In this document: positions 3,118 through 39,895 of the stretch, piece by piece
Layout of the letters: each line of letters starts with the position of its first letter
Position numbering within the stretch: position 1 is the stretch's first letter
Source: a virus
Taxonomy: Duplodnaviria > Heunggongvirae > Uroviricota > Caudoviricetes
Virus record (IMG/VR): IMGVR_UViG_2519899564_000019
Strand: one strand, 5' to 3'
DNA length: 39,895 bases
Position numbers and translations under genes: made by a program
Notes under the pieces: model-generated
Told to the model about the DNA's origin: nothing
Seen by the model: the letters and a program-made list of their open reading frames with translations, nothing else
Databases searched by the model: none

Positions 3118-4050
3118 ATGACTGATATTAACGATGTAATCAAGACCATTGATGAACTTATTGATGGCGGCGTACTGACGCAGTATGCCATCGCCAGAGA
3201 GGCGGGAATTTCCGACGGCACATTATCGGCTTTCCGCAAGGGGAAATATAAAGGCGATAACGCCGCTGTGGCTGCTTCCCTGCGTTCCTGGTATGAGAAC
3301 TGGAATAAACAAAGCGCACTGCCGGAACCGCCGCAGTTTGTGGAAACGCAGACAGTTCAGGAGCTGCGCGCACTGTTTCAGGCGGTTCGCCTGATGGGCT
3401 GTATTAACGTCATTGTGGGCGTGCCGGGGGTAGGTAAAACGGCCACCGCCCGTAATTACTGCCAGGAGCAACCAAACACCTGGATGATCACCCTGTCACC
3501 CGCGCACTCCAGCGTCACGGAGTGTCTGCTGGAGCTGGCCGATGCGCTGGGGATTGATTACACCCGCGCGAACAAAGGGGCATTATCCCGCGCCATCCGC
3601 CGTCGCCTGATGGGAACGCGTGGACTGGTGATTGTGGATGAGGCGGATCATCTTGGTATTGACGGTCTGGAGCAACTCCGGGCAATTCAGGACGCCACGG
3701 GGATCGGGATGGTGCTTATTGGTAACCCGCGCGGATTGTTTAAAGGTGGACGCCGCGCCTTTGATGATTTATCGCGCCTGTTCAGCCGTCTTGCCCGTAC
3801 AAAACAACTTCGCAAGGCCAAAAAGGCGGATGTGCTGGCCATTGCCAGGGCATGGGGTATCAGTGGTGAGGCCGAGCTGGCCGTCATGCAGGCTATCGCT
3901 GAAAAGCCGGGAGCGTTACGCGTTCTGACACATACGCTTAACCAGGCGTGGCTCACCGCCAGCGGTGAAGGTGCGGCGCTGACAGAAAAACATATTAATG
4001 CGGCCTTTAAAGAGGTTTATACCAACCCTGAATTACTCTCACAGGTGTGA
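3118..4050 (+). CDS. B: MuB-like transposition ATPase / target DNA activator
   Basis: 310 aa directly after A; Walker A GVPGVGKT and Walker B-like VIVDEADHL. Confidence 0.85.
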   Translation: MTDINDVIKTIDELIDGGVLTQYAIAREAGISDGTLSAFRKGKYKGDNAAVAASLRSWYENWNKQSALPEPPQFVETQTVQELRALFQAVRLMGCINVIVGVPGVGKTATARNYCQEQPNTWMITLSPAHSSVTECLLELADALGIDYTRANKGALSRAIRRRLMGTRGLVIVDEADHLGIDGLEQLRAIQDATGIGMVLIGNPRGLFKGGRRAFDDLSRLFSRLARTKQLRKAKKADVLAIARAWGISGEAELAVMQAIAEKPGALRVLTHTLNQAWLTASGEGAALTEKHINAAFKEVYTNPELLSQV

Positions 4051-4052
4051 TT

Positions 4053-4274
4053 ATGGCGGTATTTTATATTCCTGATATTTACGGACGCTTTTACCTGGTT
4101 AATTTCGATAACGTGAAGGTGATTTCACTGGCCGAAAATAAAGAATGTGGCGATTTACTTTTTGAATTTAATGACCGCACACGAATGGTGATATCTGCCG
4201 GACTTGATCGCGAAGGTGCGACAGAAGTTTACAGCGGAATATGCCGTTCTGTTGGTGCGAAACAAGTCAGCTAA
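4053..4274 (+). CDS. hypothetical early protein (74 aa) at the position occupied by kil in Mu
   Basis: ORF starting right after B stop; no recognisable motif; position only. Confidence 0.35.
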   Translation: MAVFYIPDIYGRFYLVNFDNVKVISLAENKECGDLLFEFNDRTRMVISAGLDREGATEVYSGICRSVGAKQVS

Positions 4275-4286
4275 ATGAGGTGTTAT

Positions 4287-4541
4287 ATGAATATGCAATC
4301 CTGCGGTAACAAAATGAATTTATTCGACTCCCTGAACAGCGCGCGCCGTCTGACCGAACTTGCCGGTGCGGTACTGGAACGCAGTAAGCGCTACCCACAA
4401 CGTTTTGCACTGAAAACCACGCCGCCGGTAGGCAACGTGCAGGGAACCGGTGAAATTGAAATCACCATACAGACCAACGGCCTGCGCCGCCGTGTGAAGG
4501 CCACCCGCATCAGCGGCTGCACGGTTTACTGGGAGGTGTGA
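4287..4541 (+). CDS. hypothetical early protein
   Basis: Track ORF 4275-4541; GAGG at 4278-4281 favours ATG 4287 or 4293 as start. No motif recognised. Confidence 0.4.
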   Translation: MNMQSCGNKMNLFDSLNSARRLTELAGAVLERSKRYPQRFALKTTPPVGNVQGTGEIEITIQTNGLRRRVKATRISGCTVYWEV

Positions 4542-4542
4542 G

Positions 4543-4824
4543 GTGAAAAAAAATCTCATTGCATGGGCGTGGTCGAGTGGTCTTATTGAGTTTGGTTACG
4601 TCCTGCCGGAAGGTGCATTGCCGATAGTTGCCGGAAAGCCTGCCACGGTACGGCATGTGATTGAGGTTATGGCGCGTCATGGACGTGATGAACAGGAGCA
4701 GTTACTGGTTCCGGGGATACCGGAAGCGGTGACGGAGGAAGAAGCCTTTAATGCCATGATTCGGTTCTGCCGTGAGGTCAGACGCCGGGTCAGTTATCCA
4801 AACAGAACGAGGACCAGAGGGTGA
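4543..4824 (+). CDS. hypothetical early protein (93 aa)
   Basis: Tightly packed ORF with GTG start overlapping the upstream stop; no motif recognised. Confidence 0.4.
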   Translation: MKKNLIAWAWSSGLIEFGYVLPEGALPIVAGKPATVRHVIEVMARHGRDEQEQLLVPGIPEAVTEEEAFNAMIRFCREVRRRVSYPNRTRTRG

Positions 4825-5093
4825 GTAAAGTCGTACGCATTATTTTCGAATACAAGGAGCACGTTATCCATAAAAACGCTGATGGAACAGTGCGCATGGG
4901 GGTAAGTCTGGACATACGTTCAACCGGGATAAAGCAGAAAGGTGATGGACCCGCCATGATTTTTGGGGTGGTTATGCTCGCGGAAAGCAGAGACTTTGCT
5001 GAACTTGTGGCAATGAAAGCCAGTGCGCTCATGAAAGATATGAGCATGCGTTCCGGGGTTATTAAAGGTAATGAATTTAATCAGCAGGGGTAA
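4821..5093 (+). CDS. hypothetical early protein, paralogue 1 (MSKVVRIIFEYKEH...)
   Basis: 90-aa ORF whose first ~15 residues closely match the next gene. Confidence 0.45.
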   Translation: MSKVVRIIFEYKEHVIHKNADGTVRMGVSLDIRSTGIKQKGDGPAMIFGVVMLAESRDFAELVAMKASALMKDMSMRSGVIKGNEFNQQG

Positions 5094-5097
5094 TTCC

Positions 5098-5391
5098 ATG
5101 AGCAAAGTACGCGTTATTTTTGAATTTAAGCATGTTTCGCATGACGAAAAACCGGCAGGCAATGACTGTGTTGAAGTGCATGAAAAGATTGGTGTGGATG
5201 TAAAAACAGAACGTGATACGAATAACAGGCCGACGTCACTCTGTGACGTTTATGCAAGTATTCTCCAGTATCACAGCCCTGAAATTATTCAGTTTCTCTC
5301 AGCGGAATTTCAGGCATCTGTACAGGCTTTTGGGGCGGATGCCATCATTAAACGCCACCGCGTGCATAAAGCATCAGGCACACTGCAATAA
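5098..5391 (+). CDS. hypothetical early protein, paralogue 2 (MSKVRVIFEFKHV...)
   Basis: Internal ATG at 5098 of track ORF 5071-5391 gives an N-terminus parallel to the upstream gene. Confidence 0.45.
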   Translation: MSKVRVIFEFKHVSHDEKPAGNDCVEVHEKIGVDVKTERDTNNRPTSLCDVYASILQYHSPEIIQFLSAEFQASVQAFGADAIIKRHRVHKASGTLQ

Positions 5392-5402
5392 GGAAAAACA
5401 AA

Positions 5403-5933
5403 ATGGCAAAACGCGTTACAAAATTAAAGGCCGCAGCAGAGGCGGCACCGCAGACCCGTGAAGAGGTCAGCAGCGATATCCGCACCCTGGGCGATATTCA
5501 GCGAGAGGCGCTGCGCCTGGAAACAGCGATGAATGATGAAGTGGCAGAAATCACCGCCCGTTATACGCCGCAGATTGAAAACCTTAAAAAAGAAATCAAA
5601 GTGCTTTTTAAGGGGATTCAGGACTGGTGCAAAACCAACCGTGATGAGCTGACGAACGGCGGCAAAACCAAAACTGCCAATCTGACCACCGGAACGGTGT
5701 CATGGCGACTGGGGAATCCATCATGCAGCGTCAGTCGTGATGTGGAAGGTGTGATTGAAATGCTGCGCCGTATGGGCCTTGAGCGTTTTATCCGCACGAA
5801 AGAGGAAGTGAACAAGGAAGCGGTCCTGGCGGAGCCGGATGCGGTGAAAGGGATTGCCGGTATTAAGGTGAATAAAGGCGCTGAAAGTTTTTATGTCGAG
5901 CCTTTTGAACAGGACGCCGGACTGAATAAATAA
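5403..5933 (+). CDS. gam: Gam-like host-nuclease inhibitor (DNA end-binding)
   Basis: 176 aa; matches Mu Gam as recalled (TNRDELTNGGKTKTANLTTGTVSWR, RFIRTKEEVNKEA, PFEQ near the C-terminus); expected position in the early region. Confidence 0.8.
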   Translation: MAKRVTKLKAAAEAAPQTREEVSSDIRTLGDIQREALRLETAMNDEVAEITARYTPQIENLKKEIKVLFKGIQDWCKTNRDELTNGGKTKTANLTTGTVSWRLGNPSCSVSRDVEGVIEMLRRMGLERFIRTKEEVNKEAVLAEPDAVKGIAGIKVNKGAESFYVEPFEQDAGLNK

Positions 5934-6030: not shown

Positions 6031-7110
6031 ATGGCATATTTTTATTTCAAATTAGACCGTGTGCAGACAAATAAATATTTCACCAAATATCAACAGACTG
6101 TTTTACCGCTACGCAACAGTATTCTTCGGGCATTACTGAAAAATACAGGCGCTGCCGGATTGCGCTTAAAGCCGTTTGCCATGGACGTAATCAGTGAGTT
6201 TTATTTTTCTGGTGCTCTGCCTGCGGGCTGGCGTAAGCGCGATGATGTGGCTTTTATCGGGGACGGACCGTGCTTTATTGCCAGACCTGATGAGTCATGC
6301 CCTGAAGGTCCGGCGATTGCCGCAATGATTGAAACCGCTGAACGTGAGTTAAGAAAGCGTCCTGATTTCCTTGTCTGGCTCTGTGAAAAGCTGGGGGTAA
6401 TGAGAATCCCCTCCATGTTTAACACGGACTCCTGGTGGACCCCGTCGCTCTCCCGTGATGCCCTGTGCGTGGTGTTTAAAGTAGGCGCTTATGGCAGGGA
6501 AATAAAAGGGTGTATTCCTGAAGAATGCCAGGAAATTAAACATTCTGAATATGTGGCGCTGACGGAGGAATACTTCATGATTGATGCAAAAGTGCTTGAA
6601 GGGGTTAAAAACTGGCTGAGTATTTACGGGCGTCTGACCTGCGGCATTCTGGCTGAAAAAATGAATATGCCGCCATCCTCGATGGTTTATTTTCTGCGTG
6701 ATGCGGTCGATGCCGGGGTGCTGACGGAATGTAACGGTTTTTATGATATTCCGCGTCCCCGCCCGGTGCAGCCGGTTCGTCGCAAATGCAGCCAGGAAGG
6801 TGCGGCTGATGATGTTCAGTGGTGCAGCTTCAGAAAATCCCTGCCGTGGATTGAGGGGCATGATATTCCGTCGATGGCGTGGGAATTTGCTCAGGGCGTA
6901 CTGACCTGCGAAACCGTTTATGTGGTGGCTGAAGTTGATGAGCAGGCCATGAAAGAAGGCGTGCCCCAGTTTGTGATGGCGTATATCGACATTCGCCTGG
7001 GTGTCATTATCTGCGGTTTAAGCGGCTGGAATATCACCGAACATGTTCTGCGTTACCTGATTGTTGACCGGACGGCTGCACCTGCCGGGATATCTGCGGA
7101 GGTGGCGTAA
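6031..7110 (+). CDS. hypothetical protein (359 aa), early-region cargo
   Basis: Long ORF with upstream AAGGAACAGG; no motif I can assign; first gene of a translationally coupled series. Confidence 0.5.
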   Translation: MAYFYFKLDRVQTNKYFTKYQQTVLPLRNSILRALLKNTGAAGLRLKPFAMDVISEFYFSGALPAGWRKRDDVAFIGDGPCFIARPDESCPEGPAIAAMIETAERELRKRPDFLVWLCEKLGVMRIPSMFNTDSWWTPSLSRDALCVVFKVGAYGREIKGCIPEECQEIKHSEYVALTEEYFMIDAKVLEGVKNWLSIYGRLTCGILAEKMNMPPSSMVYFLRDAVDAGVLTECNGFYDIPRPRPVQPVRRKCSQEGAADDVQWCSFRKSLPWIEGHDIPSMAWEFAQGVLTCETVYVVAEVDEQAMKEGVPQFVMAYIDIRLGVIICGLSGWNITEHVLRYLIVDRTAAPAGISAEVA

Positions 7111-8488: not shown

Positions 8489-8853
8489 CGGGAGGTGAAT
8501 GCGTGAGAAGTTATATTGATAATGAAAAACTGAAGACAATCAGCGACTGTCTTAGCTTGCTGGCAAAAATAAAAGAAACCATTGAAGAGATTAAATTTCA
8601 GCTTGAATACGAACCCTGTGGCGATGATACATGGCGTAACTCTGCCAGAAAAGCACTAGCTGTCTTTCAGAAACAACGCCGGACTGTTGAATACCGCCTT
8701 GCTGTATTGCGCCAGGAGGAAAAGGAAAGAAATATAAGACGTCATGAACTCGTTAATGATTTTCTTGTTCGTGAATTAAAGGAGCGTGTGCCGGAGTCGG
8801 TATTTTTTGAGTGTGAGGCTGTTGCCCGTAGCAAAGCACTGGAAACTGATTAA
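8485..8853 (+). CDS. hypothetical early protein
   Basis: Track ORF 8461-8853; ATG 8485 overlaps the upstream TGA (ATGA), or GTG 8503 follows GGAGG at 8491-8495. Charged, helical-looking sequence. Confidence 0.4.
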   Translation: MTGGECVRSYIDNEKLKTISDCLSLLAKIKETIEEIKFQLEYEPCGDDTWRNSARKALAVFQKQRRTVEYRLAVLRQEEKERNIRRHELVNDFLVRELKERVPESVFFECEAVARSKALETD

Positions 8854-8865
8854 ACAGGCAGGTGA

Positions 8866-9201: not shown

Positions 9202-9391
9202 TCTACCCGCTGGATGGGCGCGGCCACTAATGGCCAGGAAGCATCATTTTTTTAAAACAGGCGAAAATATCAGTATATGTGGACGGTGGTTATATCTGGC
9301 TCATAATCGCGAGCCGGATACATTTGAAAGCCCTGATGACTGTGCCGAATGCCGCAGAAGAGTGAATAAGGAGAAAGATAATGGACAATAG
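9194..9391 (+). CDS. hypothetical small protein (65 aa)
   Basis: Overlaps upstream stop; contains C-x20-C-x2-C; too few cysteines to call a zinc ribbon. Confidence 0.3.
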   Translation: MNSLPAGWARPLMARKHHFFKTGENISICGRWLYLAHNREPDTFESPDDCAECRRRVNKEKDNGQ

Positions 9392-10678: not shown

Positions 10679-10749
10679 TATTCCGCAAAGCCTGCCGCCT
10701 CTCCTTCACCGTTACGCTGACTCAGAGAACATCATGAGACAGCGTAACA

Positions 10750-18474: not shown

Positions 18475-18650
18475 TTGTTTAAGGTATGCAAATGCATTAC
18501 CTTACCCCCTTCAGGCGCGTGTCGTGATTTTCTAACCTGTATTTAACGGGCTTTAAAATCTGCGTGAAGCGCCTTTGTATTTTTCCCCTGGAAGCACTTC
18601 CTGAAATCCCGCAAAACCCGCCCTGAAAATTCCCGGCCTATGCTGCCGGA
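18475..18650. promoter_or_regulatory. G-I intergenic region: probable late promoter for the head operon; candidate centre-of-genome gyrase site
   Basis: 176-bp non-coding gap at about the midpoint of the prophage; near-palindrome GGTATGCAAATGCATTACC at its 5' side. Function inferred from Mu, where PI and the strong gyrase site lie between G and I. Confidence 0.4.
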
Positions 18651-31488: not shown

Positions 31489-32039
31489 CCCTGACCCCGC
31501 ATCAGCGTGCCCTGTTGCAGTTGCTGCCTGACGGGCTGGCATGGGATAAGCGGCCGTCATCCGTTCTTGCGGCTTTGTGCCTGGGCCTCAGTCATTCCAC
31601 GGAGCGTGTTTCCTGGACCGGTAACCAGATGCTGGCAGAACGTTTTCCTGATTCATCCCGTCTGCTGCTGGAAGACTGGGAGCGTTATCTGGGGTTACCG
31701 GAATGTGATATGACCGGCGCAACCATTCAGGAGCGTCAGCGTTATGCCGGGAATAAATACCGGATGAAACCCTCTCTTAACCGTGAATTTTATATCCGGT
31801 TTGCGGCAGAGTTTGGTTATGAAATAGATATTCAGCCATCACCGGATTCACAGTGGGTCAGTATTGTCACGATTAACAGTGAAACCGGCTACCGGAATAT
31901 GAATGTGCTGGATGATATTCTCACCCCGCTGCGTATTTATGAGGGTGGTGCGCTGGAATGTATTCTGAACCGTTATAAGCCTGCATGGCAGACGTTTATT
32001 TACGTGTATGCAAACAGCCATGAAGAGGAGACTATTTAA
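31479..32039 (+). CDS. tail protein (Mu gp48-like)
   Basis: 186 aa immediately upstream of the tail fibre gene. Confidence 0.6.
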   Translation: MAVTLTPHQRALLQLLPDGLAWDKRPSSVLAALCLGLSHSTERVSWTGNQMLAERFPDSSRLLLEDWERYLGLPECDMTGATIQERQRYAGNKYRMKPSLNREFYIRFAAEFGYEIDIQPSPDSQWVSIVTINSETGYRNMNVLDDILTPLRIYEGGALECILNRYKPAWQTFIYVYANSHEEETI

Positions 32040-32950
32040 TGTTTCATGTTGATAATAATTCCGGCGTGGCGAATATGCCTGCGCTGGCACCGGCGCAGAG
32101 TAATACCACCACCTGGTTTACCGAAGGTGACGGACAAAAAGGTATCAGCTGGATTGGTCAGGACTGGCTGAATATTCTCCAGGCCGAACTGCTGAATATT
32201 CTGGCTGAAGCCAGTATTCAGCCGGATAAGGCGCAGTTAAACCAGCTTACGCTGTCCATTAAAGCCATTATCGCTGCGAATGCCTTTTCCCGGAAAAACA
32301 ACCTGAAAGAAATTGCTGATGCCGGTGCGGAAGCCCAGCGTCTTGCCCGTGGTTATCTTGGTCTTGGGGCGCTTGCCACAAAAAACAGTCTTGGTCCCGG
32401 TGACGTTAATGCTCTGGCGAAGGATCAGAACCTTGCCGACCTGGAGAATGCGGGAACCGCCCGTAATAATCTGGATGTTTACAGCAAAAGCGAAGGTGAT
32501 AACCGTTACCTGCGCAGGGAGCAGAACGGCGCAGACATTCCGGATAAAGGCGCTTTTATCGATAACGTCGGTTTACGGGAAACGGTAAATAAGGCTGCTG
32601 ATGCCCTGCCATCGGGTGGAACCGCCGTGGCAGCAAACAGACTCGCCACCCCAAGAAATATTAATGGCGTTCCTTTTGACGGAACGCAGGATATCAACAT
32701 CACGTCAGGAATGACGCAGTCAACCGCAGATGGCCGGTATGTACAGAATGTTCAGCTTGGAGCACAGAGCTATCATTCACCCGGAGGCAATGAAATATCA
32801 TGGAATTACAGCGCACCTTCCGGTTGTATGCTTTCCGGTATTAACGTGCAGGAAACCGGCTCCCGGTCTGCGGACAATATCGGTGGGGTCTATTATCGCC
32901 CGGTTCAGATTTATATTAATAATGCCTGGAGAACGGTAAGTTCAGTGTAA
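32039..32950 (+). CDS. S: tail fibre protein S: constant part 32039-32568 joined to variable cassette Sv 32569-32950 in the present orientation
   Basis: 303 aa; the C-terminal third downstream of gixL is paralogous to the inverted cassette on the minus strand (DGTQDINITSGM shared). Confidence 0.8.
   Translation: MFHVDNNSGVANMPALAPAQSNTTTWFTEGDGQKGISWIGQDWLNILQAELLNILAEASIQPDKAQLNQLTLSIKAIIAANAFSRKNNLKEIADAGAEAQRLARGYLGLGALATKNSLGPGDVNALAKDQNLADLENAGTARNNLDVYSKSEGDNRYLRREQNGADIPDKGAFIDNVGLRETVNKAADALPSGGTAVAANRLATPRNINGVPFDGTQDINITSGMTQSTADGRYVQNVQLGAQSYHSPGGNEISWNYSAPSGCMLSGINVQETGSRSADNIGGVYYRPVQIYINNAWRTVSSV
32556..32581. repeat. gixL: 26-bp Gin/Hin-type recombination site inside S
   Basis: TTATCGATAACG-TC-GGTTTACGGGAA; its reverse complement matches gixR at the inner half-site and centre (TCCCGTAAACC GA), and both flanks of homology end here. 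Confidence 0.7.
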
Positions 32951-32960
32951 ACCACAGAAA

Positions 32961-32979
32961 AGGGTGCTGAATGCACCCT
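32961..32979. terminator. Hairpin between convergent Sv and tail fibre assembly genes
   Basis: AGGGTGC-TGAAT-GCACCCT (7-bp perfect stem) in the 34-bp gap between convergent genes. Confidence 0.5.
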
Positions 32980-32984
32980 CTGAA

Positions 32985-33506
32985 TTATTCCGGTTTTTCC
33001 GGCCAGGGAATCGCCTGGTAATGCCCCTCACTGGCAATATCATTAAAGTGCATTTCTTTAAGCTGTCGGATATACGCCATCCAGCGCGTCAGCTGTAATT
33101 TATTTTCATCGCTAATCATGTCCAGTTTTAATTCTGTTTTCCAGTCATCCACGGTTTCGTTGGCTTCCTGGAGCAGCGATGAGCGACGCTTTTCAGCAAC
33201 CGTCTTCCAGTTTACCGGCACCTTTGATATCAGGCCATCAGAAAACTGCCAGTTACCGTCAATATTCACACCTTCCGGCAGTTCGTCCACTTCAACAACA
33301 GTAAAACCTGCCGGATATAAAGCAGAGACATCTTCAGCAACAGAGCAGATAATACCCGTTACAGGCGAAATACAGAGTTTGTATTTCTTTGTGAAAAGCG
33401 GGATAGATTCATAAAAATCCCTTCCGTCCTCACTCTGGAAATACTGAACATCCTCACCATAGGGTTTGTCTTTCGGGTAATATCGTTTGACATTAATCAG
33501 TTGCAT
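32985..33506 (-). CDS. tail fibre assembly protein (U'-type chaperone)
   Basis: Minus-strand ORF 32985-33557; start placed at the internal Met (MQLINVKRYYP...) at 33506. Tfa-like pattern with conserved C-terminus (WQA..PWPEKPE). Confidence 0.7.
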   Translation of the reverse strand: MQLINVKRYYPKDKPYGEDVQYFQSEDGRDFYESIPLFTKKYKLCISPVTGIICSVAEDVSALYPAGFTVVEVDELPEGVNIDGNWQFSDGLISKVPVNWKTVAEKRRSSLLQEANETVDDWKTELKLDMISDENKLQLTRWMAYIRQLKEMHFNDIASEGHYQAIPWPEKPE

Positions 33507-33627
33507 AAACATCACCATGTAAATCAATGATAAAAACAGGAATAATACTATCGCCATATACAGGCAATGCTTGTCTGAAATAACGCATATTTCAGATGCT
33601 GGCTGCTGTGTGCTATGCCCCCGTTAA

Positions 33628-33994
33628 TTAAATACTTGCAGCGGATACCCAATGCCCATTAATACAATATTGTATCTGTCTGTAATAAACACGGTCATCA
33701 CCACCACGCATTTCCCAGTCTCCGTCAGTCTTAAAACCGGTAATCACATTTCCTGATGACAGGGAGTAATTATATTCCAGTCCGCCGCTTAATGCCTGCG
33801 CTCCCAGTCTTACCCCTGTAACATAACGCTGATTGGCCGTTGATTCCGGCATTCCTGACGTAATGTTTATATCCTGCGTGCCGTCAAAGGCGACACCATT
33901 GATTCTGCGGGCATTTGCCAGCCTGCTTGCTGCAACAGCCGTACCGTTTGATGGCAGGGCATTCGCGGCCCTGTTTACCGTATCCCGTAAACCG
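33628..33994 (-). other. S'v: promoterless alternative tail fibre C-terminal cassette (expressed only after inversion)
   Basis: Minus-strand frame is open from gixR (33994) to stop at 33628 and translates to GLRDTVNRAANALPSNGTAVAASRLANARRINGVAFDGTQDINITSGMPESTANQRY..., paralogous to the Sv portion of S. Confidence 0.7.
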
Positions 33995-34007
33995 AGGTTT
34001 CAGGGAT
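33982..34007. repeat. gixR: 26-bp Gin/Hin-type recombination site upstream of gin
   Basis: ATCCCGTAAACC-GA-GGTTTCAGGGAT, an imperfect palindrome resembling the gix/hix family as recalled. Confidence 0.7.
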
Positions 34008-34061
34008 GCCGTATATCTGCTTTAAAAGGCTTTTCCACCTCTTTTTAAGGAAGGTAAATAC

Positions 34062-34622
34062 ATGCTGATTGGCTATATACGCGTATCAACAAATGACCAG
34101 AACACCGGTTTACAAAGAAATGCGCTGGAATGTGCAGGATGTGAGCAGATTTTTGAAGACAAAATGAGTGGTAAAACGACACAGCGGCCGGGACTGAAGC
34201 GGGCACTGAAGAAACTAAAACCCGGTGACACGCTGATGGTCTGGAAACTGGACAGGCTGGGGCGCAGTATGCGCCACCTTGTTGCGCTGACAGATGAATT
34301 ACAGCAACAGGGGATAAATTTTCGTAGTCTTACTGACAACATTGATACGTCAACCCCCATGGGGCGCTTCTTTTTTCACATAATGGGTGCGCTGGCAGAA
34401 ATGGAGCGTGAATTAATTGTCGAACGGACACGGGCTGGTCTTGCAGCAGCCCGTGAAAGGGGACGAACCGGCGGCAGACCCCGCCGTCTCACGCAGGAAC
34501 AATACGAGCAGGTCGGGCGTTTACTGGCCGGGGGTGTCAGTCGAAGACAGGTGGCACTTATTTTTGATATCGGTCTTTCAACCCTTTATCGTTATTATCC
34601 TGCGAGCGTTTCGGAAAAATAA
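34062..34622 (+). CDS. gin: Gin/Hin/Pin-family serine DNA invertase
   Basis: 186 aa; N-terminal catalytic motif GYIRVSTNDQ, resolvase-like core and C-terminal HTH; adjacent to the invertible segment. Confidence 0.9.
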   Translation: MLIGYIRVSTNDQNTGLQRNALECAGCEQIFEDKMSGKTTQRPGLKRALKKLKPGDTLMVWKLDRLGRSMRHLVALTDELQQQGINFRSLTDNIDTSTPMGRFFFHIMGALAEMERELIVERTRAGLAAARERGRTGGRPRRLTQEQYEQVGRLLAGGVSRRQVALIFDIGLSTLYRYYPASVSEK

Positions 34623-34721
34623 GACGCTCTCTTTGTTGGGCCTTTACTGAATTAACGCAAAATGGCGTTTATCGGTCTGTGGATATGATAATTCAGTTTA
34701 TTCAGGAACAGGCTGATTATT

Positions 34722-36770
34722 ATGACGTCCAAATGGGTTCAACTATCATCAATGCCCGGAAACTTTACTGTTAAAGTTTCCGGTGGTACAGCGGCATTTC
34801 TTGAGGCTCCCTTTCCTCCGGCCGAAACAAAAGGAGGAATGACATTTGCTGACTGTCTCATCAGTTTTAATACACAGGATTGCCTGTGGGTAAGGCCAGT
34901 ATCCGGTGATCCGAACGTGGAAATTACCGGAGCGGGTATTGGTGCTGTCATTCCGTTAAGTGCTGATGTTGCCGGTACTACTGAACCGTCAGACTGGGAT
35001 AATGCAGAAACACATACCCGTCCGGCAGGAAATGAAACGGCTTCCAGCTCCCCTTCCTGGTATTACGTGATTGTTATAGCCGGCCAGTCCAATGCTTCAT
35101 CTTATGGTGAAGGGTTGCCCCTTCCGGATTCTTATGATCGTCCTGATCCACGTATTATGCAGCTGGCACGCAGGAATACACAAACCCCCGGAGGTATTCC
35201 CTGCAAATACAATGAAATCATTCCAGCAGATCACTGCCTTCATGATGTTCAGAATATGAGTCTGCTGAACCATCCAAAAGCAGACCTGAAAAAAGGGCAG
35301 TATGGTTGTGTGGGGCAGGGACTTCATATTGCGAAAAAAGTATTACCGGTGATTCCTGCTGATGCCGGGATTTTACTGGTTCCCTGTGCCCGTGGCGGCT
35401 CTGCTTTTACAACCGGCGCAGTTGGCTCATTCGATCCGGCAAGTGGTGCAGCCGAGGCGTCACTACGCTGGGGAGTGGATACCCCACTGTATCAGGATCT
35501 TGTCAGTCGAACTAAAGCGGCACTTGAGGCGAATCCAAAGAATGTGCTGTTATCTGTCGTATGGATTCAGGGGGAAGGAGACCTTAAAGCGACCCCGGCC
35601 CAGCATGGTGCCCAGTTTACTGCGATGGTGAAAAAATTCCGTGCGGATCTTGGTGCTTTCTCCGGTCAGTGTATTGGTGGTTCATCAGACAGTGTGCCGT
35701 GGTTATGTGGTGACACAACCTATGACTGGAAAGAGAAGAACCCGGCGGCATATGAAACCATTTATAGCGGATATAAAAACCGGGCTTCCGAGAACATTCA
35801 CTTTGTTCCACTGATGCACGATGAGTTCGGTAATAAAACCGCGACCAACCTGCCGGAGCACGACCCGGATATCGCTTCTGCCGGGTATTATGGTGCGGAA
35901 TCACGGGGAGATGGCAACTGGACAACAGCATCCAGGGCAACCCATTTTAGCTCCTGGGCGCGCCGTTTTCTGGTCTCAGATCGTTTTGCATCAGCAATTC
36001 TTAAATATGCAGGTCTGACCTCTGCATTTATTGCCGGTGTGGCCCCTGATGGTGAAGCCCTGCCTCAGCCCGCGCCGGGTGGGAAACCGGAAGCGCCGAC
36101 AGGTAGTCAGCCAGGAGGCAGTGAGTCCCCCCATCCGACATCCCCGTCACTCCGTACGCTGCTTTCACTTAAAGCATCAGCAGGAGAAGCCCCGGCTCAG
36201 GGCTGGAAAATTACAGATGGTACAATCCAGCTGACGGACGAAGGTAAAGCGTTGACCGTATCCAAACAAAGCGGAAAAACCTGGACGCTTACCCATGGAA
36301 CTGATGCAGCCGGTGAACTTCTGAAGCATGGTGGTCAGTTGACCTGTAAATTCCGTCTGTCAGGTGAAGTAAAAGAAGGCCAGTTTGCTCTGGGTATTTA
36401 CCTCCACACCGATACGGTCCCGGAAGGTGTAACCATGAGTGGTACAGGCACACCGTTCCTGATGGCGTATTATCTCCAGACAACAGGCGGCCAGTTAAAT
36501 CTGATGCACCATAAAACAGGGGGGAATACGAAACTGGGATCATTTGGAGCCTACAATAACCAGTGGCATACACTTGTCCTGAAGTTTACGGCGGGAAGTG
36601 CCCAGGTAACGCCTGTGCTGGATGGCACTCCGGGCCAGGCATTCCAGATGGTGAAAGATGCACTTTCCCCTGCCAAAGATACGCTGACACTGACAGATGT
36701 CACCAAAGGGGCAACTTATGGCGTGTCTTTTGAGAGCGTTGTCCTTGAGGTTAATACCCCTGCGGCATAA
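34722..36770 (+). CDS. cargo protein (682 aa) with a GQSN-type esterase motif; possible carbohydrate O-acetylesterase of the kind carried by prophages
   Basis: Motif IVIAGQSNASSYGEG resembles the catalytic block of SGNH/sialate-O-acetylesterase-like hydrolases; Gly/Thr-rich beta-looking C-terminal part; no signal peptide; inserted between gin and com where Mu has none. Family assignment from motif only. Confidence 0.5.
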   Translation: MTSKWVQLSSMPGNFTVKVSGGTAAFLEAPFPPAETKGGMTFADCLISFNTQDCLWVRPVSGDPNVEITGAGIGAVIPLSADVAGTTEPSDWDNAETHTRPAGNETASSSPSWYYVIVIAGQSNASSYGEGLPLPDSYDRPDPRIMQLARRNTQTPGGIPCKYNEIIPADHCLHDVQNMSLLNHPKADLKKGQYGCVGQGLHIAKKVLPVIPADAGILLVPCARGGSAFTTGAVGSFDPASGAAEASLRWGVDTPLYQDLVSRTKAALEANPKNVLLSVVWIQGEGDLKATPAQHGAQFTAMVKKFRADLGAFSGQCIGGSSDSVPWLCGDTTYDWKEKNPAAYETIYSGYKNRASENIHFVPLMHDEFGNKTATNLPEHDPDIASAGYYGAESRGDGNWTTASRATHFSSWARRFLVSDRFASAILKYAGLTSAFIAGVAPDGEALPQPAPGGKPEAPTGSQPGGSESPHPTSPSLRTLLSLKASAGEAPAQGWKITDGTIQLTDEGKALTVSKQSGKTWTLTHGTDAAGELLKHGGQLTCKFRLSGEVKEGQFALGIYLHTDTVPEGVTMSGTGTPFLMAYYLQTTGGQLNLMHHKTGGNTKLGSFGAYNNQWHTLVLKFTAGSAQVTPVLDGTPGQAFQMVKDALSPAKDTLTLTDVTKGATYGVSFESVVLEVNTPAA

Positions 36771-38798: not shown

Positions 38799-38834
38799 GC
38801 GCTTAAAAACTCATTCTAAAACTCAAAAGAAAAG

Positions 38835-38907
38835 CGCCGATTTAGTATCAAATAAGTTGCGTATCGGCGTTTTTCAGCGGTATCAAATGAAATGCAAATC
38901 GGTATCA
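38835..38907. repeat. Prophage right end: three direct GTATCAAA-containing repeats (candidate transposase binding sites) and terminal CA
   Basis: GTATCAAA at 38845-38852, 38880-38887 and 38902-38909 (exact end uncertain to about 20 bp); hairpin CGCCGAT...ATCGGCG followed by TTTTT at 38835-38875. Confidence 0.55.
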
Positions 38908-39895
38908 AAAAAATCGCCGCGCTATAATAGAGATCACTAATTTCAAAAGCACCAGGCGATACATAAGTTTGGTAAATGGTGTAACCATTTTGCTTAATCG
39001 TTATCTGGGCATTGCTTTTGGCGATACCACGCACCACAGGCGCAAACCCTTTCAGGCTGTCTGGCAGCATGTTGTCATCTGACGCCAGCTGCACACCACG
39101 AAAGCTGACACTATCGAAAAAATCGCCTGCAGTATAATCATCACCTACGGTCAGTTCGCCTTTTAGTGGAATAACCGCCCGCTGCAAATAGCTGCTGAGA
39201 TTCTTCCATTCTGCGGTTTGGCCACTACTGCGACTCCATGTTGAATTGTTGCGCAATCTCCATGGGCCTAAATTAACGCCACTGTTTAAATTCAGAAAAT
39301 AGCTGTCGCCAGAATCACTGTCTGCGCTGCTATGAATACTGTTAGCCCCGCTAAACGAATATCCCAGTAATAGCGCGTTGATCCCTTCATCCCAACGTTC
39401 AGGGGGGACATAACCACGGGCATTACTTTTGATGGCGATTTGCGGTACTGAAATTTCCAGACGGAGTTTATTCACATTAAACGTTACGCTGGCATCCGGA
39501 ATAATCTCCGCCAATGGCACACACGCTTGTTTGTCCAGTTGTTTAAAAGCCGGAAACGCATCAGTATTAACACCCATTGCATCCAGGCTTTCAGTCGTCA
39601 AACAGGCGGCAATCCCCTTCTCTGGCGTTATCTCAACAAAATTGACGTTGCGCGTATCTACAATTGTCTGATTCAGAACAATATCGACACGATAAACCCC
39701 TGGCGTTATTTTTTGTCCTTTTTCGAAACGAGACAAATCGGCCACCATTGAGGGATCATCTTTGAAAAAAGCAGGATCGAACCAGGTTTCAGCTTGTGCA
39801 TTGAACGCTGCCGACACAAACACCACCAGCCCACCAATAAACGATGGCACTCCACCAGAGCTTAACAGGCTGTGTTGTCGATGAGTTCTATACAT
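38908..39895 (-). pseudogene. Fimbrial usher (FimD/PapC family) N-terminal fragment, truncated by the prophage insertion
   Basis: Minus-strand ORF begins at the window edge with a signal peptide and an usher N-terminus (ARGYVPPERWDEGINA, FRGVQLASDDNMLPDS, ITIKQNGYTIYQTYVSPGAFEISDLY); after ...YSAA the frame runs about 32 codons into prophage sequence to a stop at 38816; ushers are normally about 800-900 aa. Confidence 0.75.

Follow-up and report, generated by a model that had tools for sequence, protein, structure and literature searches.

A Gin-type switch in a Mu-like E. coli prophage probably runs two alternative tail-fibre tips on a single tail fibre assembly chaperone. In the window, by which we mean the whole 39,895-nucleotide stretch analyzed here, inversion of a segment of about 1.43 kb swaps the tail-fibre tip, and we consider it on balance probable that one Tfa, expressed separately from the opposite strand, is shared by both tips of this Sp18-like prophage. 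The shared-Tfa part of this reading draws on comparative data and on published Sakai arrays. In the textbook cases of Mu, P1 and e14, every alternative tip of an invertible fibre segment comes with a chaperone of its own, and work on engineered fibres also takes fibre and chaperone to be matched. Among the natural modules surveyed here in which a fibre is linked to an invertase, a large share carry two or three tips per chaperone gene, with Tfa systematically uncoupled from the fibre gene that precedes it. The window itself is otherwise ordinary, a member of a long-known prophage family, the Sp18-like prophages having been known since 2001. Its switch region comprises the following features.

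32039-32567, plus strand: Sc, the constant N-terminal part (176 codons) of the fibre gene S, joined to the tip that faces it at the time
32556-32581, plus strand: gixL crossover site, TTATCGATAACG TC GGTTTACGGGAA, inside the S reading frame
32568-32950, plus strand: Sv, the variable tip currently fused to Sc, with no co-oriented chaperone gene
32959-32981, minus strand: hairpin in the gap where Sv and Tfa end facing each other, folding at -16 kcal/mol (z -3.2)
32985-33506, minus strand: Tfa, the sole gene for a predicted tail fibre assembly chaperone, 173 aa, downstream of S'v (Pfam Caudo_TAP, E 2.4e-18)
33507-33627, minus strand: AT-rich spacer of 121 nt that separates the start of Tfa from the stop of S'v, with its own Shine-Dalgarno GGTGA and a palindrome at 33574-33596
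33628-33995, minus strand: S'v, silent alternative tip cassette without a start of its own, fused in frame to Sc by inversion
33982-34007, plus strand: gixR crossover site, ATCCCGTAAACC GA GGTTTCAGGGAT
34008-34061, no strand assigned: gixR-gin spacer, 54 nt, nearly identical in Sp18
34062-34622, plus strand: gin-like serine DNA invertase gene, 186 aa (Resolvase, E 1.4e-51, and HTH_7)

The coordinates of the gix sites, their GA centre and the 1.43-kb interval between these inverted copies had been proposed in an earlier note on this DNA, and all were borne out. Aligned as inverted copies, gixL and gixR are identical at 18/26 positions and at the central dinucleotide (TC/GA), and gixL matches Mu gixL at 22/26 positions in an alignment judged by eye. 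Within the 39.9 kb, the 13-nt core TCGGTTTACGGGA has exactly two occurrences, one per strand, and still only two when one mismatch is allowed, against a chance expectation of 0.02; two matches were reached in 0/100 shuffles. Because Sv and S'v are homologous, the inverted repeat extends beyond the sites to 179 nt at 75% (32564-32742 and 33821-33999).

The invertase is organized like a small serine recombinase: it starts with MLIGYIRVSTNDQ, has a resolvase domain at the N-terminus (PF00239, E 1.4e-51), the catalytic Ser around residue 9-10 and an HTH at the C-terminus (PF02796, E 1.7e-14), and is 75% identical to Mu Gin. The 5' end of its coding DNA closely resembles those of Mu gin and e14 pin, a strong conservation that coding constraint accounts for as well as a Fis enhancer would. 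We infer that the gin promoter must lie in or next to the interval 34008-34061, which is also one of the candidate sites for a leftward S'v-Tfa promoter; a consensus promoter search within it found none.

Inversion of the segment between the two gix sites occurs in nature. The 8.7-kb loci of the sister E. coli strains OkiPb01712 and OkiPb01678 are identical bar one exact inversion, whose breakpoints correspond to window positions 32568-32581 and 33982-33995, within the core. Among complete E. coli genomes with locus coverage of at least 80%, the window orientation was found in 183 and the inverted orientation in 26. Both states are present in natural genomes, and the suggestion that this is a Gin-type phase-variable host-range switch is supported. 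Inverted in silico at the central dinucleotide, the segment joins Sc to S'v in frame, giving a 302-aa fibre with the chaperone gene behind it, as had been foreseen. The core dinucleotide is TT/AA at both Sp18 sites versus TC/GA at both sites here, a joint change.

In the present orientation S (32039-32950, plus strand) encodes 303 aa ending in Sv and matches PHROG 1833 (tail fibre) over its full length at E 3e-166. It combines a Mu S-type constant part with a tip domain: Sc aligns with Mu S residues 1-191 (5yvq_A, E 1e-48), and S as a whole matches 5yvq_A across residues 1-198 (E 3e-43) and 228-302. The last ~75 aa of Sv match the Mu S tip at 434-503, a 75-aa stretch of S'v aligns with the Mu S tip at 57%, and Sv and S'v are 55% identical to each other over 126/121 aa. 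Judged by substitution rates across seven alleles (dN/dS 0.07-0.11, with dS >1 in some pairs), Sv is a functional tip under strong purifying selection. A 74-aa ORF at 33628-33852 was considered as a free-standing tip protein and rejected, its ATG being the Met of a conserved ITSGM motif and lacking a spaced Shine-Dalgarno. The short fibre of phiTE (PDB 9cuy) was discarded as a guide, as the structure does not show its tip and offers nothing on a chaperone.

The segment thus holds two homologous fibre tips, Sv and S'v, and a single Caudo_TAP gene. By its profile matches, the product of 32985-33506 belongs to the Caudo_TAP tail fibre assembly proteins, with a predicted chaperone role: it scores 67 bits against PF02413 (gathering cut-off 22.1) and matches PHROG 136 at E 3e-57 and Mu U, a Tfa whose structure was determined together with that of its fibre (5yvq_B), at E 1e-15. 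Its dN/dS is 0.11-0.19. ORF inspection agreed with the earlier description of S ending in Sv with no plus-strand Tfa behind it; neither a chaperone ORF nor a Tfa remnant lies on the plus strand after Sv. The ORF list, Pfam and the relatives' loci revealed no second Caudo_TAP gene in the segment, so the count of one chaperone stands. The stops of Sv and Tfa lie only 35 nt apart, and the gap is occupied by the well-formed hairpin, which is followed on the minus strand by a U-run and therefore resembles a terminator for the Tfa transcript.

The Tfa ORF stays open up to 33557. An upstream ATG at that position would give Tfa a hydrophobic 17-aa extension, but it reads ATA in L011 and L016, and we therefore regard the extension as not coding. 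A structured RNA in the spacer was likewise rejected: the 9-bp palindrome at 33574-33596 has no compensatory changes in L011 and L016, and an Rfam search of the spacer gave no match at E up to 1.

A near relative is prophage Sp18 in the Sakai strain of E. coli O157:H7 (ECs_4989 to ECs_4992), which belongs to the same family and shares the gene order of baseplate genes, S (303 aa), convergent Tfa, silent tip, invertase and a DUF6645 gene. Sv differs at 2/126 residues, Sc and gin are near-identical, and Tfa has about three non-synonymous changes in 173 codons (~98% amino acid identity). Sp18 differs in carrying another S'v cassette, a 79-nt spacer of unrelated sequence and the TT/AA core. Its invertible host-specificity region has been described as distinct from that of Mu and scored 'atypical' (Asadulghani 2009).

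The Mu G segment is homologous to the window's in its invertase, gix sites, Sc, tips (Mu S) and Tfa (Mu U), and in both elements the gin gene follows immediately to the right of the segment, with no change of strand between them. In contrast to the 1.43 kb and one Tfa here, Mu has a 3-kb segment arranged as Sv-U / U'-S'v with a chaperone gene per orientation, and its chaperone genes start 2 nt past the fibre gene whereas the window spacer is 121 nt; the window tips also lack ~200 aa of the middle of Mu Sv. The window therefore departs from the symmetric Mu type both in lacking a chaperone per orientation and in lacking tight fibre-chaperone coupling. The P segment of e14 with PinE (E. coli K-12), 1.8 kb in size, resembles the window in having a short fibre after a YmfQ (Mu gp48-like) gene and the Pin gene right of the segment, and differs in having two Tfa genes (tfaP and tfaE, the latter overlapping stfE by 1 nt) and a pix core of AA. 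The earlier statement that Mu has two chaperone genes is thus correct, and e14 is alike. FDAARGOS_1059 also has two Tfa genes, and a Mu-like inversion that Milman 2023 confirmed with long reads (CP066032), considered as a family member, proved to be of the true two-Tfa Mu type.

P1 has a chaperone gene for each orientation. As in the window, a serine invertase exchanges fibre C-termini in the P1 C segment (Cin) and in carotovoricin Er (Ein) (PMC13195805). An EPEC P2-like prophage has an invertible fibre end with three inverted repeats (Goldberg 2014, PMC4272514). The P2-like IMG/VR loci L114-L117, L159 and L169 follow the same design logic as the window, combining two or three tips homologous to one another with a single Tfa of 157 aa behind a 95-nt spacer and a Gin-like invertase 73-77% identical to the window's, but differ in their gpJ/gpI/gpH backbone, an unrelated tip fold and another Tfa subfamily.

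Two tips with one Tfa were found in every gin-linked IMG/VR relative, across several combinations of tip and Tfa alleles. A scan of genome contigs with Sc returned only 4 loci, among them a Citrobacter braakii relative with three sites and one Tfa. About half of the sampled invertase-linked fibre modules have the one-Tfa layout, including P2-like modules with three homologous tips in which Tfa is convergent in two of three states. As far as these genomes tell, the one-chaperone layout is common and not a private defect, and the implication that the asymmetry is unusual did not hold up. In the phage genome collection, matches were confined to two Stx-phage records that carry an inserted Mu-like element; it contained no isolated Sp18-like phage and nothing matching the P2-like module of L117.

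One-Tfa modules also differ from two-Tfa modules in how Tfa is coupled to the fibre gene. AT-rich spacers of 43-121 nt precede Tfa in 25/30 one-Tfa modules, all with a good Shine-Dalgarno, versus -26 to +14 nt at 26/26 fibre-Tfa junctions of two-Tfa modules (Mann-Whitney p 5e-7 at the locus level; Fisher p 0.006 at the type level). Tfa allele A occurs with Sv and two different linked tips, and allele B, 64% identical to it, occurs with near-identical Sv and S'v. The Tfa alleles therefore track neither tip, and Tfa specificity within the family looks loose.

Published expression data bear on how Tfa is transcribed. In 70-mer arrays of Sakai between 4.6 and 5.5 h, ECs4990 (Tfa) rose by 2.13 and ECs4991 (S'v) by 2.12 log2, rises that may include cross-hybridisation with other prophages' fibre genes, while ECs4989 (S) changed by +0.3, ECs4986 went down and ECs4993 was flat (Bergholz 2007, PMC2241611). 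The source was an Sp18 lysogen in stationary phase and not in lytic growth, with an S'v cassette and spacer that differ from the window's; the Sakai reference genome has Tfa convergent to S, and the array culture may mix orientations. By these arrays, S'v and Tfa of Sp18 are induced together and apart from S. In the window, sigma-70-like matches in and around the 121-nt spacer reach only 8-9/12, which is chance level. A late-activator promoter before Tfa was rejected, the box ATYCCGCAAARCCYGCC, derived upstream of lys and I, being unmatched in the segment.

In the switch itself, gixL, inside S, recombines with gixR at the matching central dinucleotide, presumably by the action of the Gin-type invertase, which flips the 1.43 kb and fuses Sc to either Sv or S'v. 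In the mechanism we propose, the single Tfa would most likely serve whichever tip is expressed, which it could do because it is not tied to the upstream fibre gene. It would be uncoupled by its own ribosome-binding site behind the 121-nt spacer, and the S'v-Tfa unit would be transcribed from a promoter separate from the late operon carrying S. When co-oriented with S, Tfa would be made by late-operon read-through; when convergent, it would be made from its own promoter.

Sharing of the same Tfa, expressed from the opposite strand, is the likeliest case and one that the earlier note had left out. That note implied instead that the Sv form might be defective, chaperone-independent or served in trans. 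Purifying selection on Sv, the Tfa genes adjoining Sv-like tips elsewhere, the spacer that uncouples Tfa and the transcription of Sp18 Tfa with the silent S'v, independently of S, all speak against this implication.

The strongest of the alternatives, which we hold to be unlikely, is that Sv folds and trimerises without Tfa, leaving the chaperone to S'v alone and making the requirement truly asymmetric. It would fit the lack of a co-oriented Tfa after Sv in any Sv-type locus among the relatives, the hairpin that closes the S transcript region, and the dN/dS values that mark Sv as clearly functional. Fibres that fold without Tfa by other solutions do exist, for example via intramolecular chaperone domains, but Sv shares the tip fold family of Mu S and S'v and has no extra C-terminal domain. 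All of the ~65 loci in which Sv-like tip matches cover the C-terminus and have flanking sequence adjoin a Tfa gene, and in non-invertible phages with Sv-like tips (50-70% identity) Tfa always comes next, on the same strand, overlapping or at most 6 nt downstream. The Tfa-linked tip in Citrobacter is the Sv-like one, and therefore one tip type fills both the 'orphan' and the 'linked' positions. Tfa independence of Sv is also at odds with locked, Sv-only derivatives in which a single deletion, common to all of them, has removed S'v and gin but left an intact Tfa convergent to S. This retention could stem from recent recombination and not from selection; the shared deletion junction is 97% identical, and dS within Tfa is 0.41.

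We consider it improbable that the Sv state is OFF, producing fibre-less or misfolded particles, or that it relies on the Tfa of other resident prophages. Lambdoid prophages with Tfa genes are numerous in STEC hosts, and the loose Tfa specificity within the family would make such help conceivable. Against either version, the low dN/dS of Sv with saturated dS argues for a protein in use, and assembled genomes show the Sv orientation more often than the other. The layout recurs in unrelated phage backbones, and a defect is therefore unlikely; we would also not expect the late genes of other prophages to be on during Mu-type lytic growth.

A role in the lysogen, in which the S'v-Tfa unit mainly acts there, for instance in surface-receptor masking as reported for e14 StfE2, and does not chaperone Sv, is similarly doubtful. 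It would account for the induction of ECs4991 and ECs4990 at stationary-phase entry of an uninduced lysogen, in a cluster holding RpoS-type stress genes (PMC2241611), and would be in keeping with the block of T2 adsorption by inverted e14 fibre fragments (PMC12529663). It would likewise agree with the treatment of Mu gp50 (Tfa) as a virion fibre component and, going by the title of North and Davidson 2021 as cited there, with tail-fibre assembly proteins that bind host surfaces (PMC11915804). However, S'v lacks a proper start: position 33852 does offer an ATG, but this is the ITSGM Met and has no spaced Shine-Dalgarno. The fourfold change, moreover, comes from a single array study. In a dual-use form of this idea, which strikes us as a long shot, silent tip and Tfa would be a lysogen unit induced in stationary phase and useful to the host cell, for instance through receptor masking, and the invertase would toggle the tip-chaperone product that the lysogen displays, in addition to its part in the virion.

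A recent private deletion of the second chaperone gene from a Mu-type G segment is barely credible, for despite the two Tfa genes of Mu, FDAARGOS_1059 and e14, Sp18, Citrobacter and every IMG/VR relative, whatever its tip and Tfa alleles, share the one-Tfa layout. The gap between the stops is short and filled by the hairpin, and the plus strand holds no remnant of such a gene.

If one Tfa does serve several tips, it would be the tip-fold family that determines Tfa specificity, and host-range cassettes could be swapped without swapping the chaperone along with them. Sp18-like prophages of STEC would then offer a compact natural test system. Elsewhere, the window contains homologues of the Mu-like genes C, lys, I, T, K, com and mom.

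The window, a Mu-like E. coli prophage, has homologues of Mu C, lys, I, T, K, gin, com and mom, and a 2.7-kb query (32000-34700) finds 100% identical sequence in several complete E. coli genomes, one of them O157:H7. Baseplate genes (Baseplate_J, Mu Gp48-like) precede the fibre module, in which a constant part (Sc) of fibre gene S is fused to the tip Sv, and an alternative tip, S'v, lies silent beside a tail fibre assembly chaperone gene (Tfa).

Features of the fibre module (window coordinates)
32039-32950, plus strand: fibre gene S, 303 aa
32959-32981: hairpin between S and the Tfa gene
32985-33506, minus strand: Tfa gene, Pfam Caudo_TAP (E 2.4e-18), homologue of Mu U (5yvq_B)
Between the Tfa gene and the S'v cassette: 121-nt spacer
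33628-33995, minus strand: S'v fibre tip cassette, without a start
34062-34622: invertase gene, Resolvase and HTH_7 domains

S aligns with Mu S (5yvq_A) in two blocks, residues 1-198 and the final 75 residues of S, indicating that the fibre is Mu S minus about 200 residues from the middle of Mu Sv. Sv and S'v are 55% identical over their full length, and because of this homology the inverted repeat reaches 179 nt.

The crossover sites, gixL (TTATCGATAACG TC GGTTTACGGGAA) and gixR (reverse complement ATCCCTGAAACC TC GGTTTACGGGAT), share an exact 13-nt core absent elsewhere in the window, against a chance expectation of 0.02 matches. Flipping the segment in silico at the central dinucleotide fuses Sc in frame to S'v, giving a 302-aa fibre, and puts the Tfa gene downstream of it. 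The inversion postulated in the earlier note does occur: the 8.7-kb loci of two Okinawa bovine isolates differ by exactly the gix inversion alone, with breakpoints within the shared core, and among complete E. coli genomes matched at 80% coverage or more, 183 have the window orientation (Sv on Sc, without a co-oriented chaperone) and 26 the inverted one (S'v), a skew that may reflect clonal sampling or a real bias. The switch is thus functional in nature.

The same gene order is found in Sakai Sp18: a 303-aa fibre, a convergent chaperone gene, a fibre fragment, a DNA invertase and a DUF6645 gene. The Sp18 Tfa is about 98% identical to that of the window, and gixR, the gixR-gin spacer and gin show little difference, whereas the S'v cassette and its spacer differ. 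Both Sp18 sites (locus L089, 3643-3668 and 5018-5043) have TT/AA as the central dinucleotide where both window sites have TC/GA; the change is paired, and the cores still match each other. The window module is a variant of the Gin-type invertible fibre module with a single chaperone, and it belongs to the Sp18 family, which had been described before. Asadulghani et al. rated the host specificity of Sp18 as atypical and observed packaging of its DNA (PMC2669165); we found no discussion in the literature of the number of chaperone genes.

That the invertible segment holds two tips and one chaperone gene, as first described, is correct, and a search of the segment and its relatives revealed no second chaperone gene. 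All gin-linked relatives in IMG/VR pair two tips with one Tfa, and the tip and Tfa alleles are combined in several ways. In Citrobacter braakii ATCC 51113 (L082, 6812-9230) there is one 229-aa Tfa, co-oriented with the Sv-like tip, an extra 366-bp third cassette and three gix-like sites; the system is probably multi-state.

Gix-like sites of the C. braakii locus
6812-6837, plus strand
8839-8864, minus strand
9205-9230, minus strand

We surveyed 80 loci encoding relatives of the window invertase; among those outside the Sp18 group with enough upstream sequence, the invertible segment carries one Tfa in 13 loci and two in 11. P2-like phages that combine two or three homologous tips with a lone Tfa of 157 aa belong to the first set. 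Mu and e14 have two Tfa genes, as does the Mu-type prophage that Milman 2023 confirmed with long reads. The asymmetry is real, but it is a common and conserved architecture in relatives and in other modules, a design rather than an accident. Two P2-like IMG/VR contigs, L114 (about 3270-5380) and L116 (about 3700-5380), have three homologous alternative tips (endings WFAVGY, WFAIGF, RFIAIGY and YWIVLGY) and a 95-nt spacer before the 157-aa Tfa. Four further one-Tfa P2-like modules (L123, L143, L151 and L164, about 4900-5430) lack a spacer; their alternative tip, of 113 aa, is unrelated and overlaps a following 90-aa ORF that may encode a second chaperone not recognised as such.

The earlier note suggested that the Sv form might do without a chaperone, be defective or be served in trans. 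A defective form is unlikely given dN/dS of 0.07-0.11 over seven Sv alleles, some pairs having a dS greater than 1; S'v, at 0.19-0.27, is under looser constraint. Chaperone independence is also unlikely, as Sv-like tips elsewhere always lie beside a Tfa: the gene adjoins in every locus where a match covers the tip C-terminus and sequence continues beyond it, in non-invertible phages the Tfa comes after the tip, overlapping it or at most 6 nt away, and the tip type that is an orphan in the window is the linked one in Citrobacter. Derivatives from which a deletion removed S'v and gin (L012-L015, strain JE86-ST05 and strain M1) have a common deletion junction (298/308 nt identical) and retain an intact Tfa convergent to S. 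Tip and Tfa alleles vary among such locked Sp18-like loci (L012 3025-4800, L090 2126-3870, L013-L015 and H58).

In the model we favour, the single chaperone gene would carry its own expression signals and serve both tips. Tfa allele A occurs with Sv and one or other of two distinct linked tips, and allele B (64% identical) with near-identical Sv and S'v. The N-domain, the fibre-binding part of Tfa (PMC9608196), is the better conserved here (65-77% versus 43-52% for the C-terminal half). Judged from these alleles, Tfa specificity does not forbid one Tfa for both tips.

Because the silent cassette lacks a start codon, the Tfa gene behind it cannot depend on translational coupling. Measured from the stop of the tip to the start of Tfa, all 26 gaps in two-Tfa segments fall between -26 and +14 nt (median 1), versus 43-121 nt in 25 of 30 one-Tfa segments (Mann-Whitney p 5e-7 by locus; Fisher p 0.006 by type). 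The long spacers comprise six unrelated types, all AT-rich and all with a good Shine-Dalgarno sequence. The window spacer holds a perfect 9-bp, AU-rich palindrome (33574-33596, TCTGAAATA N5 TATTTCAGA), with no U-run after it and no compensatory changes keeping it in relatives.

Expression data come from 70-mer oligo arrays on Sakai (Bergholz et al. 2007, PMC2241611); in the Sakai reference genome, Tfa and S are convergent. From 4.6 to 5.5 h, ECs4990 (Tfa) and ECs4991 (silent tip) rose by 2.13 and 2.12 log2, cross-hybridisation being possible, while ECs4989 (S) changed by +0.3, ECs4986 went down and ECs4993 stayed flat (PMC2241611). The joint rise apart from S points to an S'v-Tfa transcript separate from the late operon of S, in a stationary-phase Sp18 lysogen rather than in lytic growth. 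A terminator-like hairpin and U-run follow the Tfa stop on the Tfa strand. Consensus scans for a Tfa promoter stayed at chance level, and Rfam families gave no match. Exact copies of ATYCCGCAAARCCYGCC, likely the binding box of the phage's C-type late activator, are confined to two places, upstream of the homologues of lys and I (10680-10696 and 18606-18622), and the box is absent from the invertible segment.

One shared, separately expressed chaperone gene is the simplest explanation of the asymmetry, well supported and in our judgement somewhat better than an even bet; we infer it in part from array data, possibly cross-hybridising, on a stationary-phase lysogen of Sp18, which has another S'v and spacer. 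Two findings merit specialist attention: the general spacer rule and the independent S'v-Tfa transcript.

Window positions 34722-36770 encode a protein of 682 aa that combines a SASA domain, sialate O-acetylesterase-like, with DUF6645 (PHROG 143, unknown function). Its gene follows gin in all members examined downstream (the window, L001, L002 and Sp18) and comes directly after Tfa in L012 and L090, both locked derivatives, whereas Mu has no gene at this position; the protein could be an esterase that modifies surface sugars or is associated with the virion. On the right the prophage ends at about 38933, inside a fimbrial usher gene, and the listed 359-aa ORF (38816-39895, minus strand) is a chimera of usher and prophage-end sequence.
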